Assembly (NCBI GenBank): GCA_964458415.1
Contig: CAYWIT010000008.1
Coordinates: 1,108 to 65,107 of the forward strand
Reading direction: 5' to 3'
DNA: 64,000 nucleotides
Source: an uncultured Rhodospirillaceae bacterium
GTDB taxonomy: Bacteria > Pseudomonadota > Alphaproteobacteria > Micavibrionales > UBA2020
Shown: one piece after another, positions 11,134-61,267 of the stretch
How positions within the stretch are numbered: position 1 is the first letter of the stretch
How the letters are laid out: every line of letters starts with the position of its first letter
Notes under the pieces: generated by a model
Databases searched by the model: none
Told to the model about the DNA's origin: nothing
The model's input: the letters and a program-made list of their open reading frames with translations, nothing else
Translations under genes and position numbers: made by a program

Positions 11134-11917
11134 ATTTCCCGAAAATCTTTCCGAGGCCCGTATTTTAATTTCCAACGATGACAGCATCCATTCGGACGGC
11201 ATCAAGGTGCTGGAGGATATTGCGCGGTCATTGTCGAACAATGTCTGGGTCGTGGCGCCGGAAATGCAGCAATCGGCGGCAGGCCATTCCCTGACCATTC
11301 ATATGCCCTTGCGGATCAAGGAATATGACGCCCGCCATACGGCGGTTTACGGGACGCCGACGGATTCCGTTCTGGTCGGAGTCCAGAAGGTTATGAAAGA
11401 TATTCGCCCGCATCTGGTGCTCTCGGGGATCAATCACGGGCAAAACACGGCGGATGACGTGACTTATTCCGGGACGGTCTCGGCCGCGATTGAATCAACG
11501 CTGATGGAAATTCCATCTGTGGCATTCAGTCAGGATATGGATGAAACCTTCGGGAGCAAGTCTGACTGGTCCATTGCGCGTGAATATGCCCCGCGCATAT
11601 TGAAAGCGCTGCAGGGCAGGACATGGGAAAACAATATTCTTCTCAATGTCAATTTTCCCGTTAAAAGGCCGGGCGTGACGCCGGAAATCCGCGTGGTGCC
11701 GCAAGGTCATTACACGATGAAAGAGCAGGAGATGGTGAATTGCATTGATCCGCGCGGCCGTCCCTATTTCTGGATCGGGCCGCCGCCCGCCCGTAACGAG
11801 CTTGATCAAAGCTTCGATGTCGGGGCGCTGAAAACGGGGCATGTCACTGTAACGCCGCTGTCGCTGAATTTAACGCATCATTCCACGCTTAAAACCATGG
11901 AGGGATTATTCCGGTGA
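11126..11917 (+). CDS. surE: 5'/3'-nucleotidase SurE
   Basis: 263 aa. [17 protein letters not shown] and [22 protein letters not shown] motifs. Overlaps the serS stop and the pcm start. Confidence 0.9.
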
Positions 11918-54133: not shown

Positions 54134-54973
54134 TCAGGCGACGTTCGTCAGAACTTCTTCCAGCTTTTCAGCAGCCTTTTTCTCGTCGATTCTCTCGATG
54201 GCGGCAACTTCACGAGCCAGACGCTCCAGCGCGGCCTGATAAATCTGGCGCTCGCTGTAGGATTGTTCCGACTGGTCGTCTGCCTTGCGAAGATCGCGCA
54301 GAACCTCGGCAATGGCGACGGGGTCTCCTGAGTTGATCTTGGTTTCGTATTCCTGTGCACGACGGCTCCACATAATGCGGCGTGTCTGGGAACGGCCCTG
54401 CAATGTGGCCAGCGCGTCTTTCAGGCGATCCTTGGAAGAAAGCTTGCGGAGACCCGAGGCCTTGACCTTGCTGACGGGGAGCTTGAGACGCATCCGGTCT
54501 TTTTCAAAGCAAATCGTGTAAAGGGTAATTTCCATGCCCGCAATCGTCTGGGTTTCCACGCCTTCAACCAGACCAACGCCATGTGCGGGATAAACAACGA
54601 AATCCCCGGCGACAAAATCAAGTTTTTCGATTTTTTTAACGATCACGGTTTCTTGCACAATAACGGGCGCAGCTTCCTTTTTTTGAACTTTTTCTTTTTT
54701 GATTACAGCGGCTTCCGGTTGTTTTTTCATTTCTACCTTTTTCGGTGCGGCGATAGGCTTTGCAACAGCTTTTGCTACGGACTTCGCTACAGGTTTTGCA
54801 ACAGATTTTGCAACAGGCTTAACCTTCGCCTTTACGACGGGCGCCTTGGCAACGGCTTTTTTGGCGACAACTTTCTTTGCAATAACGGGCGCGGCTTTCT
54901 TCGTTTTTGCGACCGTTTTGACTGCAGCGGGTTTTTTAGCTGCTTTTGCCTTTGTTTTCAATGTCTTTGCCAT
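54134..54973 (-). CDS. carD: CarD/CdnL-family RNA-polymerase-binding regulator with a Lys/Ala-rich (histone-H1-like) N-terminal extension
   Basis: 279 aa. The C-terminal ~165 aa form the CarD_CdnL_TRCF core (GDFVVYPAHGVGLVEGVETQTIAGMEITLY...RRIMWSRRAQEYETKINSGD...). The N-terminal ~110 aa consist of AKKPAA/VAKSVAKP-type repeats. Confidence 0.85.
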   Translation of the reverse strand: MAKTLKTKAKAAKKPAAVKTVAKTKKAAPVIAKKVVAKKAVAKAPVVKAKVKPVAKSVAKPVAKSVAKAVAKPIAAPKKVEMKKQPEAAVIKKEKVQKKEAAPVIVQETVIVKKIEKLDFVAGDFVVYPAHGVGLVEGVETQTIAGMEITLYTICFEKDRMRLKLPVSKVKASGLRKLSSKDRLKDALATLQGRSQTRRIMWSRRAQEYETKINSGDPVAIAEVLRDLRKADDQSEQSYSERQIYQAALERLAREVAAIERIDEKKAAEKLEEVLTNVA

Positions 54974-56705: not shown

Positions 56706-57071
56706 GTCACCGTTCCCCGCAATTTAGGGGGATACGGCAACCTGTACCTCATGCCACAACAGACAAAGAAGGTCACCGTTCCCCGCAATTTAGGGGGATA
56801 CGGCAACAAGCGCGAAAGAACACAGCTTATCGTGAACGTCACCGTTCCCCGCAATTTAGGGGGATACGGCAACACTATTGGCGATGCATTGACAGAATCA
56901 TCTGTCACCGTTCCCCGCAATTTAGGGGGATACGGCAACGTGCGACATGAACAAGTACGACGCCGAACAGTCACCGTTCCCCGCAATTTAGGGGGATACG
57001 GCAACTTGTCAAACTGCTCATTCCAGTTAGTGATTGTCACCGTTCCCCGCAATTTAGGGGGATACGGCAAC
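56706..57071 (-). CRISPR. CRISPR array: 6 identical 36-nt repeats and 5 spacers of exactly 30 nt
   Basis: The plus-strand repeat is GTCACCGTTCCCCGCAATTTAGGGGGATACGGCAAC. Copies start at 56706, 56772, 56838, 56904, 56970 and 57036, giving a 66-nt period. Spacers lie at 56742..56771, 56808..56837, 56874..56903, 56940..56969 and 57006..57035 and are all unique. The strand assignment (minus, co-directional with the adjacent HEPN gene) is an inference from repeat folding, not certain. Confidence 0.95.
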
Positions 57072-57157
57072 TGGTTCCTTTCAAAGCTTTGTTTCCAAAG
57101 CAGAAAGGCAACCACTCGGACTTACAAAATCCACAAAAGTGAACTAATGCCGATCTA

Positions 57158-58588
57158 TTATGTAGCATTTTTTCCCGCTCGTTGCAAGCCATTGGATTGT
57201 CCGGCGTGTTGCAGTGCCCGCATCCATCCGGCAGCGATTTTGCGGACTGCGCGTCGTCGGTTGACTTCAGTGCCGCTATTTTTCTCCTGTTTTGCCTGCG
57301 CGCGTTTTTCTGCGCTCCAGCGACGAATTTTTTCCGTCTTCGGATGTCCATCGTCAGACGTATGCATGACGGCATGATTTTCGCGGCGCAATAGCCGTTC
57401 GATCTGGTCGCAGAAGGTAGACTTCTGCCCCGTGGGAAGGGAGGCAAGAACTTTGGCGAAAACATCCTCAACTGTCAGGGGGCTCTTGTTATCCTGTGCG
57501 TAAATGCGCCAGAACAACCCGTTATGCGCCAGTGTGTTTCGTATATTGTGCAAATCGGCGTCTTGAATTTTCTCTCCTTTTTTATCCTTCGGCGCGAAAT
57601 CGATATAGTGATGGATGACAGCACCTATGTGCATGGTAAGCATGTAAAGGGGTTCAATGTCGTGCCGAAAGCTGGGTTTTTCCGCATGGTCTGCTGTATA
57701 GATGAGGGCGCGGCTTTTTTTCTGCAGGGGGAGGCCAAGGCATTCGAAAATTGCGCGCAGGTTCTGTGGACCGATAAAGTCATAGCGGCGTTTGAACTGA
57801 AATTCACGATAATCCGTGGGCGATATGCCGAGCGCCCTGTATGACTTGAGCCAGATCGCGGTGTTGTCGGCATCTGTCGCAAGCGCCTTACGGCGTGTTT
57901 TTCCAATCCTCGCGCGTTTTCGTTCCTCCGAAAACATAAGGCGACGGCTCTCGGCGTTTTCCTGCCTGCACCATTCGAAGAGTGTGTGCATGCCGTCAGC
58001 CGCTGCCTGCGCCGTCTTTTCTTTTACGGAGCGGGCTCTCATTTCTAACATGTTGCATATTCCCGGTAAAAGCAGGATGCTAAGCGCTTCGAGCACTTTT
58101 GTATTTTTCTGCGCGTTGAAAGTCTCTCGCTTTCTTTTCCTCTCTGCGTAATGCTCAAGATAATGACGTTTGTCTATCAAGATCTCTATGGCGTCGTTGA
58201 ACTGCTCAAACCGCCAGAAAATACCATGCTGCTGCTTGAAACCATCAGCAAATATTTTTTGCAAGCTTTCGTCCTCTTGCAGTTTCCGCAACAGGGAAAG
58301 GAATCCTTTGTGAAAGATGTCCGTGGTTTTCGTGTGTCGGCACTTCGGGTCAAGAACTGCACTGCGAAAGTGGGCTTTGTTTTTTGGGATGGCCTTTTTG
58401 GCAATACTAAACATTTTTTTGCGGCGGGCCATGGCGCTGCGTGGGAAACCCTGCCAGAACAAAGTTTGCGCATGGGTGCCTGCCAGACGGATAAAGAACA
58501 GCAAGTCCGAGCGGAATACATGATTTTCTTCCAGAGAGGAAAGGTCGATATCTTGCGGTTTCAGGCAATGCGGAACAATTTTTTTCAT
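57158..58588 (-). CDS. candidate miniature single-effector CRISPR RNase: 476-aa basic protein with two HEPN-type R-x4-H motifs (Cas13-like / type VI-like)
   Basis: This is the only ORF between the array and the housekeeping genes. It carries RHYLEH (aa 141-146) and RNTLAH (aa 350-355), both fitting the R[NHQ]xxxH form used by Cas13 HEPN sites. It has several Arg/Lys patches (ERKRKRE, EERKRARIGKTRRK, RRWSAEKRAQAKQEK...NRRRAVRK). The array lies 86 bp downstream on the same strand. The ATG overlaps the stop of the upstream gene (TAATG). No overall family recognised by eye. Confidence 0.65.
   Translation of the reverse strand: MKKIVPHCLKPQDIDLSSLEENHVFRSDLLFFIRLAGTHAQTLFWQGFPRSAMARRKKMFSIAKKAIPKNKAHFRSAVLDPKCRHTKTTDIFHKGFLSLLRKLQEDESLQKIFADGFKQQHGIFWRFEQFNDAIEILIDKRHYLEHYAERKRKRETFNAQKNTKVLEALSILLLPGICNMLEMRARSVKEKTAQAAADGMHTLFEWCRQENAESRRLMFSEERKRARIGKTRRKALATDADNTAIWLKSYRALGISPTDYREFQFKRRYDFIGPQNLRAIFECLGLPLQKKSRALIYTADHAEKPSFRHDIEPLYMLTMHIGAVIHHYIDFAPKDKKGEKIQDADLHNIRNTLAHNGLFWRIYAQDNKSPLTVEDVFAKVLASLPTGQKSTFCDQIERLLRRENHAVMHTSDDGHPKTEKIRRWSAEKRAQAKQEKNSGTEVNRRRAVRKIAAGWMRALQHAGQSNGLQRAGKNAT
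57524..57541 (-). other. HEPN-type motif 2 (R350-N-T-L-A-H355)
   Basis: The complement of 57524..57541 reads CGA AAC ACA CTG GCG CAT. Local context: DLHNIRNTLAHNGLFW. Confidence 0.6.
58151..58168 (-). other. HEPN-type motif 1 (R141-H-Y-L-E-H146)
   Basis: The complement of 58151..58168 reads CGT CAT TAT CTT GAG CAT. Confidence 0.6.
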
Positions 58589-59883
58589 TACAACGTATCG
58601 CGCAGTCTATACCAGAGCATTCCCAGCACAAACAAGGGCTGTTTCAGCAGGTTGCCTCCCGGAAACGGCGCATGTTTAATGCCGGCAAAAACGTCAAACC
58701 GTTCCGCCGTGCCGCTGACGGCTTCGGCAAGGACTTTTCCGAGGATATTGGTGGCGACGACGCCATGTCCGCCAAAGCCGTGGGCAAAATAGACCTGCGG
58801 TGTTATGCGGCCGAGGTGGGGCATGCGGTTGATGGTAAATTCGATGGGCCCACACCAGCAGTGGTCAATACGCGTCATGGCCAGCGCCGGAAAGAGTTCA
58901 ACCATGCGTTTGCGCAAGCGGGTGTCCTCACCGGGGTAATCCTTGCCGCTATAATTGCAGTTACCGCCAAAGAGAATGCGCTTGTCGGCGGACAGCCGGT
59001 AATAATTCATGATAAAATTCGCATCGATCACGGCGATGTCGCGGCGGAAAATATTTTGCGCCAGACGTTCGCCCAGCGGCTCGGTAGCGATCATATGCGC
59101 GGTGGCCGTAATGGATTTTTTCTGCATGACATCAAGTCCGTTAATGCCGATCGCGCCGGCCAGAATAACGAATTTGGCATTCACAAGGCCGTGCGCTGTT
59201 TTGACTCTGGGCGCAGGGCCGCTTGTATCCAGTGCCGTGGCAGGGCAGCCGTCATAAATTTTACAGCCAAGTTTCTGTGCGGCCTGTGCAATGCCCAGCG
59301 CGTAATTCAGCGGGTGGAAATGCCCTGCTTTCATATCCAGCATGCCGCCTGTATATTTCTCGCAATTGATATAGGCTTGTGTTTCTTTTTGGTCGAGCAG
59401 TTGGAAGTCGTTATGGCCGACGGCTTTCCAGTCATTGATTTCACTTTGCAAGGCGCTGATATGGCCTTGGTTCATGGCGGCAGTTAAATGGCCGAATTTC
59501 AGGTCGCATTGAATGTCATGCTCCATGATCCGGCGCAGGATAAGATCAATGCCTTCCAGCGAGATATCCAGCAGGGTTTTGGCTTGTCCGATGCCAAATT
59601 GGCGGATCAGCGTTGCCGTGTCCATGGCAAACCCGCGCTGCAAATGTCCGCCATTCCGGCCCGAAGCGGAAGAGGCAATAGTGCCGCTTTCCAATAATAT
59701 GACGGAATAACCTTTGCGGGAAAGCTCCAATGCAGCGGAAAGTCCTGTAAAACCGCCGCCAATGATGCAAACATCACAGTTGACCTCGCTCCGGAGGGAG
59801 CCTAGAGTCGCGACAAGGCGATTGGTCGTCAGAGCATACCATGGACTTGTGTATTCTTTTACATTTTCATATTTCTTTGGCAT
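58588..59883 (-). CDS. FAD-dependent oxidoreductase (gamma-glutamylputrescine oxidase PuuB-like)
   Basis: Start at the internal ATG (MPKKYENVKEYTSPWYAL...). CDVCIIGGGFTGLSAALEL dinucleotide-binding motif. The overall pattern resembles E. coli PuuB. The longer track ORF (to 60024) would overlap the divergent gene. Confidence 0.8.
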   Translation of the reverse strand: MPKKYENVKEYTSPWYALTTNRLVATLGSLRSEVNCDVCIIGGGFTGLSAALELSRKGYSVILLESGTIASSASGRNGGHLQRGFAMDTATLIRQFGIGQAKTLLDISLEGIDLILRRIMEHDIQCDLKFGHLTAAMNQGHISALQSEINDWKAVGHNDFQLLDQKETQAYINCEKYTGGMLDMKAGHFHPLNYALGIAQAAQKLGCKIYDGCPATALDTSGPAPRVKTAHGLVNAKFVILAGAIGINGLDVMQKKSITATAHMIATEPLGERLAQNIFRRDIAVIDANFIMNYYRLSADKRILFGGNCNYSGKDYPGEDTRLRKRMVELFPALAMTRIDHCWCGPIEFTINRMPHLGRITPQVYFAHGFGGHGVVATNILGKVLAEAVSGTAERFDVFAGIKHAPFPGGNLLKQPLFVLGMLWYRLRDTL

Positions 59884-59917
59884 GATGACGTTTCCCGCAA
59901 ACGGAGTGGAGTTATTC

Positions 59918-61267
59918 ATGGACAAGCTTGAACAGTTTATCCGAGAACACAAGATAACGGAAGTTGAATGCCTTGTCCCTGATATGTCCGGCGTGGCGCG
60001 GGGCAAGATTTTGCCCGCCGACAAGCTATTACGTATTCTGCGGGAACGTGGAATGCCGTTGCCGGAAAGCGTTTTTGTCCAGACGGTGACGGGGGGTTAT
60101 CCCCTTAACGATGCCGATCTGATCTCGCCTACTTTTGGCGATGTTTATATGGTGCCGGATGTCAAAACAGTCCGGCTGGTGCCGTGGTACAAAGAGCCTA
60201 CGGCGCAGATTATTTGCGATGCTTATAACGCCGATGATACGCCGGTAAATATTTCCAGCCGTTATATCCTGAAAAAAATTGTCTTGGAATATGTCAAACT
60301 TGGTTTGACGCCTGTTGTTGCGCCGGAGCTGGAGTTTTATCTCGTGGCGGTCAATACGGATCCCGATTTGCCGTTGCAACCGCCTGTCGGTCGTTCGGGA
60401 CGGCAGGAAAGCGGGCGTCAGGCCTATGGCATTGATGCGGTCAATGAATTTGATCCGATTTTTGAAGATGTCTATGATTATTGCGAATTGCAGAACGTGG
60501 ATATTGACACCTTAAGTCATGAAGCGGGCGCGGCACAGATCGAAGTCAACTTCAATCATGGTGATCCTGTCGAGTTGGCGGATCAGGCTTTTCTGTTCAA
60601 GCGCACGACGCGTGAAGTGGCGATCCGTCACGGTGTTTATGCGACCTTTATGGCGCAGCCGATGCGGACCGAGCCCGGCAGCGCCATGCATATCCACCAG
60701 AGTCTTGTTGATATAAAAACCGGAAAAAATGCCTTTGCGAATGACGATGGCAGCGATACGGAATTATTCCGCCATTATATCGGCGGGTTGCAAAAATATC
60801 TGCCGTTCGCTTTTCCGCTATTTGCGCCGAACGTCAATTCCTATCGCCGTTTCGGGCATAAGGAAACGGATTCTCCTGTCAACGTCGAATGGGGCATCGA
60901 CAATCGCACGGCAGGCCTGCGCGTTCCTGTGGCCAAACCGGAAAACCGCCGCGTGGAAAACCGGTTGCCCGGCGCGGACGGCAATCCTTATCTTTCGATT
61001 GCGGCTACGCTGGCCTGCGGGCTTCTGGGGATCATGGAAAAGGTCGAACCGAGCGAGCAGATTAAAGGCAATGCCTATAAGAAAGGCCATACTTTGCCCT
61101 ATCAGCTGACGGATGCGCTGAAGCTGATGCTGGATTGCAAGCCGTTGCAGGAGGTGCTGGGCCCGCATTTTGTCAAGACGCTGGCGTCGATCAAGGAGAC
61201 GGAGTTCAAGGCCTATAACGCTGTGATCTCTTCATGGGAACGCGAGAATCTGCTGTTGAATGTCTGA
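59918..61267 (+). CDS. glutamine synthetase family protein (gamma-glutamylpolyamine synthetase PuuA-like)
   Basis: Start at the ATG at 59918 (MDKLEQFIREHKITEVECLVPDMSGVARGK), after GGAGTGGAG. GS catalytic motifs (PELEFYL, HEAGAAQIEVNF, GSAMHIHQSL, NSYRRF, NRTAGLRVP, ENRLPGADGNPYL). Confidence 0.8.
   Translation: MDKLEQFIREHKITEVECLVPDMSGVARGKILPADKLLRILRERGMPLPESVFVQTVTGGYPLNDADLISPTFGDVYMVPDVKTVRLVPWYKEPTAQIICDAYNADDTPVNISSRYILKKIVLEYVKLGLTPVVAPELEFYLVAVNTDPDLPLQPPVGRSGRQESGRQAYGIDAVNEFDPIFEDVYDYCELQNVDIDTLSHEAGAAQIEVNFNHGDPVELADQAFLFKRTTREVAIRHGVYATFMAQPMRTEPGSAMHIHQSLVDIKTGKNAFANDDGSDTELFRHYIGGLQKYLPFAFPLFAPNVNSYRRFGHKETDSPVNVEWGIDNRTAGLRVPVAKPENRRVENRLPGADGNPYLSIAATLACGLLGIMEKVEPSEQIKGNAYKKGHTLPYQLTDALKLMLDCKPLQEVLGPHFVKTLASIKETEFKAYNAVISSWERENLLLNV

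Follow-up and report, generated by a model that had tools for sequence, protein, structure and literature searches.

A complete, probably functional type VI-E (Cas13an/Cas13e) CRISPR-Cas locus in a Micavibrio-like alphaproteobacterium

The 64,000-nucleotide (nt) stretch of DNA analysed here (contig CAYWIT010000008.1 of assembly GCA_964458415.1, from an uncultured Rhodospirillaceae bacterium, positions 1,108 to 65,107 of the forward strand), which we refer to as the window, carries a compact two-part locus in which one gene for a 476-amino-acid (aa) protein is followed on the same strand by a CRISPR (clustered and regularly interspaced short palindromic repeats) array of six repeats. We hold with high confidence that this is a complete and probably functional CRISPR-Cas system of type VI-E with the effector known as Cas13an or Cas13e. 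It is a previously unpublished ortholog in a known, characterised and curated family and not a new kind of system. A first-pass annotation of the window had proposed a single-effector type VI system of the Cas13an size class, and this agrees with a full-length match to the NCBIfam family NF049956 and with the likeness of both protein and repeat to those of the published Cas13an8. The novelty which that annotation implied has to be given up, as the family was published in 2024, has been characterised experimentally, is classified as VI-E and is covered by an annotation hidden Markov model (HMM).

The effector, its array and the Cas13an family

The main features of the locus are as follows.

57158..58588, minus strand: cas13an / cas13e gene, 476 aa, single effector of type VI-E (open reading frame and NCBIfam NF049956)
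58151..58168, minus strand: HEPN1 R-x4-H motif RHYLEH, R141-H146 (translation and family alignment)
57524..57541, minus strand: HEPN2 R-x4-H motif RNTLAH, R350-H355, followed by NGLFW (translation and family alignment)
56706..57071, minus strand: CRISPR array of six 36-nt repeats and five 30-nt spacers, with the repeat GTTGCCGTATCCCCCTAAATTGCGGGGAACGGTGAC as read on the minus strand

The open reading frame (ORF) begins with an ATG and ends with a TAA stop codon at 57158-57160, 86 nt from the nearest repeat (57071), and the two R-x4-H motifs lie 209 residues apart in its translation. The array contains six identical copies of the repeat GTCACCGTTCCCCGCAATTTAGGGGGATACGGCAAC (plus strand) starting at 56706, 56772, 56838, 56904, 56970 and 57036, each exactly 66 nt after the one before, and five unique, mutually unrelated spacers, and six identical 36-mers in such perfect register are far beyond chance. 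All coordinates given for the array in the first-pass annotation were reproduced, as were the single same-strand ORF, its distance from the array and the positions of the motifs at residues 141-146 and 350-355.

The protein matches the NCBIfam model NF049956.1 'VI_Cas13e' with E = 3.4e-125 and 418.8 bits (the curated cutoff is 175), residues 16-460 aligning with positions 1-466 of the 467 in the profile, and this is the sole NCBIfam family matching it at E <= 10. NCBI names WP_150213186.1 after NF049956, and this protein is Cas13an1 in Table S3 of PMC12165695 (Science, 2024). Identity to Cas13an8 is 61% (245/401 residues, over the part printed in Table S3), and the full-length Cas13an8 (P0004, 474 aa) is likewise listed at 61%, while the nearest relative, P0002, is 65% identical to the window protein. 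The window protein sequence has already been deposited in NCBI, on a contig of 97.5 kb. Table S3, with its 13 proteins, does not include it, and its N-terminal peptide is missing from the supplements (PMC12165695). It is neither PbCas13an nor SpCas13an of a 2025 preprint because both are at most 49.9% identical to known members; these two are closest to Cas13an2.

In an alignment of 14 family sequences, R141, R350, A354, H355, F359 and W360 do not vary, and only one member departs from the conserved E145 and H146 (within the Table S3 set, the particular motif RHYLEH is found in Cas13an5 and Cas13an8 only). Alanine substitutions in the R-x4-H motifs abolished the activity of Cas13an orthologs (PMC12165695).

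The repeat RNA GTTGCCGTATCCCCCTAAATTGCGGGGAACGGTGAC, read on the minus strand, is predicted to fold end to end as a hairpin (-19.2 kcal/mol, z = -4.7, with 0/200 shuffles folding as well), and comparison of 11 distinct family repeats gives compensatory changes in 7 of the 13 pairs of the stem. The family repeats are all 36 nt and of the form GTTG...CCCC-loop-GGGG...GAC, and the GTTG...GAC orientation of the window repeat is that of the gene strand (minus). It is identical to the Cas13an8 repeat at 34/36 positions, with both mismatches in the loop. By homology, the array would be transcribed on the minus strand to give CRISPR RNAs (crRNAs) in the order spacer-5'/repeat-3', because the Cas13an8 spacer-repeat oligos in Data S2 of PMC12165695 read in this way. 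A search for the window repeat with a free loop and an otherwise exact match found it to be absent from JGI metagenomes and IMG/VR.

Linkage between this gene and an array recurs among the relatives, where more than 20 other loci nearly always carry 36-nt hairpin repeats of this kind immediately downstream, the homologue comparison by which the first-pass annotation had thought its reading could be judged. Scans of loci were keyed on AHNGLFW, the most conserved peptide, and 185,579 species-representative genomes yielded 11 Cas13an loci, most of them in named Alphaproteobacteria (Sphingomonadales, Hyphomonadaceae, Gemmobacter and Tokpelaia) and one named to Pseudomonadota only. Arrays of 3 to 30 repeats follow on the same strand 90-210 nt after the gene in 7 of the 11. 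In L001, the closest genome locus at 65% identity, there are two repeats and one spacer (11521-11622), the second repeat ending in T and the first in C, and in another (L007) a single repeat (11639-11674) follows an intact gene and leader. Among nine metagenome loci with longer matches, six have an array directly downstream (L012, L014, L016, L017, L019 and L020). The Logan contigs of the close clade L027, L030 and L031 run out inside or just past the first repeat, as is expected because assemblies break at arrays, and the L028 contig ends in the apparent start of a repeat. L029 has a single repeat (2431-2466) after an intact gene and leader, and then more than 280 nt of unrelated sequence.

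Searching 1.84 billion cluster representatives (50% identity) with a profile returned 86 relatives, 54 of them at E <= 1e-30. The full-length profile matches are mostly of about 430-630 aa, with none above 692 aa and none of canonical Cas13 size. Among 5.8 billion proteins there are only 13 Cas13an clusters at 90% identity, and no relative is encoded by the IMG/VR viral contigs. The family is larger than published and is still very rare.

Structural comparison, a further check envisaged in the first-pass annotation, gave no independent confirmation of the HEPN fold, which in the family is an intramolecular HEPN dimer with a rearranged order of helices. An AlphaFold model built with the 14-sequence alignment was confident (predicted local distance difference test (pLDDT) 81.6, predicted template-modelling score (pTM) 0.83) and mostly alpha-helical with four short strands. 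Foldseek comparisons of the full model with PDB and BFVD, and of the N-terminal half with PDB, gave no match at E <= 0.001 (the best Cas13 match was Cas13d 6iv8, E = 1.9), and when the single protein or the family profile was compared by sequence with PDB chains, no relative of solved structure emerged. This failure is no argument against membership, since the authors who described the family met with it too: Cas13an could be linked to other Cas13s neither by Foldseek nor by HMM searches (PMC12165695). Matches elsewhere were weak (Pfam HEPN_Apea, E = 0.34; PADLOC NsnC, E = 0.021), and an hhalign comparison of the N-terminal with the C-terminal half as a test of internal duplication was not significant (5% probability).

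For other cas genes, we compared the 57 non-overlapping ORFs of at least 70 aa from the whole window with PADLOC-DB, a collection of models for known anti-phage defence systems which we take to include Cas models. No Cas-named model was found among the best 25 of the 50 matched families (the other matches have E > 7e-7), in keeping with the first-pass statement that the 64 kb hold no other cas genes; the matches among those 25 families are to generic ATPase, SMC, Lon, ParE, sigma-factor and similar proteins.

The locus most resembles that of Cas13an8. The proteins are of 476 and 474 aa with identical RHYLEH and RNTLAH motifs and an AGQ..GL..AGKNA C-terminal tail, and both loci have 30-nt spacers, a same-strand downstream array, a homologous leader of 85-86 nt with the same two hairpins, and no other cas genes nearby. 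They differ at about 39% of residues, in the repeat loop (TTAACT in Cas13an8, TAAATT in the window), in the number of spacers (nine or more compared with five), and in host and setting, the Cas13an8 host belonging to the Sphingomonadales and that of the window being Micavibrio-like, with unrelated flanking genes. Compared with the family as a whole the window locus shows no difference in kind: the protein falls within the published range of 429-577 aa (PMC12165695) and has the dual R-x4-H motifs and the mostly alpha-helical predicted fold, the array of 36-nt hairpin repeats is adjacent, the host is alphaproteobacterial, Cas1 and Cas2 are lacking from the locus, and a hairpin occupies the guide slot of the extraneous crRNA of the first repeat (see below). 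Cas13an/Cas13e has been classified as subtype VI-E (Makarova et al. 2025, PMC12669027).

The naming of these proteins is inconsistent. The NCBI product name is 'type VI-C ... Cas13e', the 2025 classification uses VI-E and the discovery paper Cas13an, while 'Cas13e' was earlier given to an unrelated Cas13b-like group (Cas13e-i), which is VI-E in Migur et al., where Cas13an is 'ancestral type VI'.

Type VI-B (Cas13b and Cas13bt, or Cas13X) shares with the window locus the spacer-5'/repeat-3' crRNA, a 36-nt end-to-end repeat of the form GTTG...AC, 30-nt spacers and an extraneous crRNA from the first repeat. However, VI-B effectors are far larger (about 775-800 aa in the compact Cas13bt/X group), and the window protein, at 476 aa, falls outside VI-B both in size and in sequence, with no detectable similarity to VI-B in NCBIfam at E <= 10. 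VI-B differs further in that some systems carry Csx27 or Csx28 accessory proteins, and in that a leader-repeat hairpin blocks the extraneous crRNA where Cas13an is predicted to use a guide hairpin (PMC13187072); unlike in VI-B, one HEPN site in Cas13an serves both crRNA processing and target cleavage. The first-pass annotation had associated the 36/30 geometry with the Cas13b branch, and this was well placed, as the spacer-then-repeat crRNA is reported to be shared only with the Cas13b family (PMC12165695). Typical Cas13s are of 800-1400 aa, and the small size of Cas13an has been attributed to missing large HEPN insertions and the lack of a canonical recognition (REC) lobe (PMC12165695).

AbiD/AbiF (Abi_2) proteins resemble the window protein in being HEPN R-x4-H nucleases associated with defence. 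They have a single HEPN domain per polypeptide. The Cas13an HEPN domains have been proposed to derive from them, but these proteins are not linked to CRISPR arrays and instead co-occur with the non-coding RNA RF03085 (PMC12165695).

Cas13an is the smallest known RNA-guided CRISPR effector, and an intact ortholog of Cas13an8, the best-performing published member, offers natural variation useful for engineering compact RNA-targeting tools. The native array and leader of the window ortholog are complete, and through it a Micavibrio-like alphaproteobacterium joins the range of hosts, while the current understanding of type VI systems is left unchanged.

Two further observations concern the effector. 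A C-terminal tail of the form W(M/V)R(A/D)LQ.AG...GL..A.KN(A/V) at residues ~455-476 (57158-57200, minus strand) is common to eight close-clade proteins and absent from other members; the confidence of the model is high over residues 451-470 and falls only at the last few residues. The L028 protein (P0008, 501 aa, ~40% identical) has RNWLNSY in place of R-x2-LEH-Y, so that the HEPN1 glutamate and histidine are gone, and retains the HEPN2 motif, the conserved leader and the apparent repeat start at the contig end. From its sequence, P0008 may be a natural nuclease-impaired variant.

The leader between gene and array

The 86 nt between the stop codon and the first repeat form a leader with the following parts.

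57072..57157, minus strand: leader, 86 nt, conserved in the Cas13an8-like clade (8-locus alignment)
57126..57143, minus strand: leader hairpin 1, 5 bp (57130-57143), followed by a T-run (57126-57129) (folds and alignment of 8 loci)
57074..57112, minus strand: leader hairpin 2, ~39 nt and 14 pairs, ending 2 nt before repeat 1 (RNAalifold covariation)

The leader is kept in all eight loci of the Cas13an8-like clade, and no such conservation is seen on the far side of the array. In gene strand order, it consists of a -35-like TTGAYA (5/8 loci), a short hairpin of variable stem sequence followed by the T-run (8 loci, from per-sequence folds or by eye), the invariant TTTTnTAAGTCC, with TAAGTCC lying 52-54 nt before repeat 1 in all eight loci, and the stem-loop of ~39 nt at window positions 57074-57112. 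The region of hairpin 1, the T-run and TTTTnTAAGTCC could act as a cas13an terminator, as the -10 region of an array promoter, or as both, with hairpin 1 and its T-run as a candidate terminator and/or promoter-spacer element; a scan for terminator and promoter consensus sequences did not flag the hairpin 1 and T-run region. The structured leader, and by inference the transcription start and the end at which spacers are acquired, lie on the side of the array next to the gene. We note that in other clades the related motifs GTCCGCAGG and TAAGTGCAAGGG are found at the same place as TTTTnTAAGTCC (region 57118-57143).

Hairpin 2 shows compensatory changes in 9 of its 14 pairs (RNAalifold, eight sequences). 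Its covariation score of 0.454 compares with 0.251 in shuffles (0/500 reach 0.454) and with 0.06-0.23 when the register is slid, and a covariance model of the hairpin matches window positions 57072-57117 with E = 7e-10, the window sequence itself being in the training set. When this close-clade model was run against the distant clades it did not recover them by sequence, the only marginal match being L016 (E = 1.1). Equivalent hairpins nevertheless lie directly beside repeat 1 in 13 distinct distant loci, that of Cas13an1 among them (fold z of -2.1 to -4.9; these correspond to 14 locus identifiers, as L008 and L014 are identical). In a second clade, 6/13 pairs of the hairpin show compensatory changes, and the crRNA-sense strand has conserved G·U pairs. 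Across the family, the leader hairpin is conserved in structure and not in sequence.

In type VI systems with spacer-repeat crRNAs, the first repeat would give rise to an 'extraneous' crRNA (Migur et al., EMBO J 2026, PMC13187072), and hairpins in the guide portion have been predicted, without test, for 'ancestral type VI' systems (PMC13187072). We had considered the leader hairpin as a new feature and dropped this, as it had already been predicted there. The covariation in hairpin 2 is comparative support for that published, untested prediction on the silencing of the extraneous first-repeat crRNA. It should be noted that in almost all the Cas13an loci that we examined a stem-loop of ~39 nt ends 1-3 nt ahead of the first repeat (L001 11475-11520, L002 9180-9225, and within the stretch of 46 nt that precedes repeat 1 in L003-L020).

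Proposed function and alternative explanations

The Cas13an family has been reported to carry out programmable RNA knock-down, with HEPN-dependent crRNA processing and target cleavage, from loci without other cas genes (PMC12165695). Guided cis and trans RNA cleavage and phage defence have been shown for Cas13an2 and Cas13an8 only (PMC12165695), and Cas13an8 is the ortholog which protected E. coli more than 1000-fold against T4 (PMC12165695).

On this model, transcription of the window array would start from the gene-proximal leader and proceed on the minus strand, and Cas13an would bind every 36-nt repeat hairpin. A single composite HEPN site formed by RHYLEH and RNTLAH would then trim the precursor crRNA inside the upstream spacer, ~23-24 nt from the repeat, to give five spacer-5'/repeat-3' crRNAs. 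Once a crRNA had paired with a phage or plasmid transcript complementary to it, this HEPN site would also cut the target in cis and bystander RNA in trans, and the infection would be aborted. The first repeat has no upstream spacer, and here the covarying hairpin of ~39 nt would fill the 'spacer 0' slot, where it most likely stops a leader-derived extraneous crRNA from guiding Cas13an or competing for it. If the array still gains new spacers, Cas1-Cas2 would have to be supplied by another part of the genome; in 4 of 10 genomes with Cas13an, type II systems have been reported in trans (PMC12165695).

Some points have to be set against our interpretation of the locus as a functional defence system. 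The five spacers have no match in INPHARED phage genomes (blastn, E <= 10) and only chance-level matches in PLSDB plasmids (blastn, E = 1 and 4), and none was found for them in IMG/VR (exact 22-24-mers), in the window (both strands, up to 7 mismatches) or in the related loci that were fetched (mismatches allowed). The function of the window ortholog is inferred from experiments on orthologs, mainly Cas13an8 (61% identical) and Cas13an2, and ongoing spacer acquisition is unproven, there being no adaptation genes in the window. We regard the spacer results as uninformative and do not count them against function, because the lineage is uncultured.

Several observations would fit an orphan, decaying relic, acquired horizontally without adaptation genes and left with frozen spacers and no immunity: the scan of the 64 kb detected no Cas1 or Cas2 model among the best 25 of 50 PADLOC-DB families, none of the five spacers matches the searched phages, plasmids and viral contigs, the closest relatives include minimal arrays (two repeats and one spacer in L001, a single repeat in L029), and the module lies in an unrelated housekeeping context in each lineage. 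Yet the ORF is unbroken, matches the family profile over its full length and keeps both catalytic motifs, the six repeats are identical with no degenerate terminal repeat, and the conservation of the leader and the covarying hairpin implies purifying selection on expression and processing. As loci lacking cas1 and cas2 are also the family norm, active tested orthologs included (PMC12165695), we think decay quite unlikely. It is also unlikely, in our view, that Cas13an arrays are maintained or renewed without a resident Cas1-Cas2, for example by cassette-level horizontal exchange or an unrecognised acquisition route, with the fixed unit of hairpin and first repeat being positively regulatory; the idea comes from the two-part cassettes, their unrelated housekeeping contexts in each lineage, the lack of adaptation genes nearby and one relative bracketed by rpoD sequence (see below).

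Co-option for regulation of host genes, with the spacers or a fixed extraneous crRNA directed at the cell's own transcripts, seems very improbable to us, since the 64-kb window contains no match to any of the spacers (both strands, up to 7 mismatches), the hairpin locks up the leader-derived guide and so speaks against its acting as one, and published Cas13an array spacers match double-stranded DNA phages (PMC12165695). What speaks for it is the position of the locus among core genes (rpoH, carD, fdxA, clpX and a glnA-like gene), the overlap of the cas13an start codon with the oxidoreductase stop and the co-transcription which this makes possible, and the mention by Migur et al. of fixed extraneous crRNAs as open to other uses (PMC13187072). 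We find it scarcely credible that the protein is a stand-alone dual-HEPN abortive-infection toxin of AbiD/AbiF type which lies beside a repeat array by chance. Pfam shows only weak generic HEPN similarity, there is no structural match to solved Cas13 proteins, and the Cas13an HEPN domains fall in one clade with AbiD/F (PMC12165695), but against this the protein belongs to the curated Cas13e family over its full length, gene and array are linked in more than 20 independent loci with co-varying repeats, and none of 14 family members matches Abi_2 in Pfam at E <= 1. RF03085 is also absent, as the Rfam scan of the window yields tRNA (transfer RNA) only, and orthologs are RNA-guided (PMC12165695).

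Genomic setting

The type VI-E locus is set in the core chromosome and not in a defence island. NCBIfam or Pfam annotation of 20 window ORFs identified housekeeping genes only. The neighbours on the array side encode a 310-aa protein without a family match, ferredoxin FdxA, a CarD-family protein and RpoH, and those on the other side an oxidoreductase dependent on flavin adenine dinucleotide (L-pipecolate oxidase-like), then a GlnA-like ligase and ClpX. The nearest named relatives of the window ClpX are from Micavibrio sp. and metagenome-assembled genomes of unclassified Alphaproteobacteria, at ~89% identity. The oxidoreductase gene (58588-60024, minus strand) ends in a TAA stop which overlaps the cas13an ATG by one base (TAATG, 58586-58590), and a look at the stretch upstream of the gene on the cas13an strand (58589-58900) turned up no promoter-like site; cas13an may be co-transcribed with this upstream metabolic gene. 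The guanine-plus-cytosine content is 50% for the cas13an gene and 53% for the window, and a scan of the window at Rfam gathering thresholds identified three tRNAs and no other family.

Apart from incidental sigma-factor similarity, no window gene except cas13an recurs beside any relative. There is no insertion scar at the window module, because a search of its flanks yields only chance 8-9-mers. In six Sphingomonadales-type loci (L011, L005, L018, L020, L009 and L019), cas13an lies directly downstream of a full-length rpoD, which in L009 and L019 is seen at the contig starts. In L011 (7950-9980; 11956-12055) a second copy of the final 100 nt of rpoD, 96% identical, stands ~50 nt past the array, and the cas13an-array cassette is thus bracketed by a direct duplication resembling an insertion scar; there is no such duplication in the window, L009 or L020. 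Finally, in the CarD-family regulator of the window (54134-54973, minus strand) the CarD domains start at residue 121 and are preceded by an N-terminal extension (~110 residues) in which Ala, Lys, Pro and Val abound.

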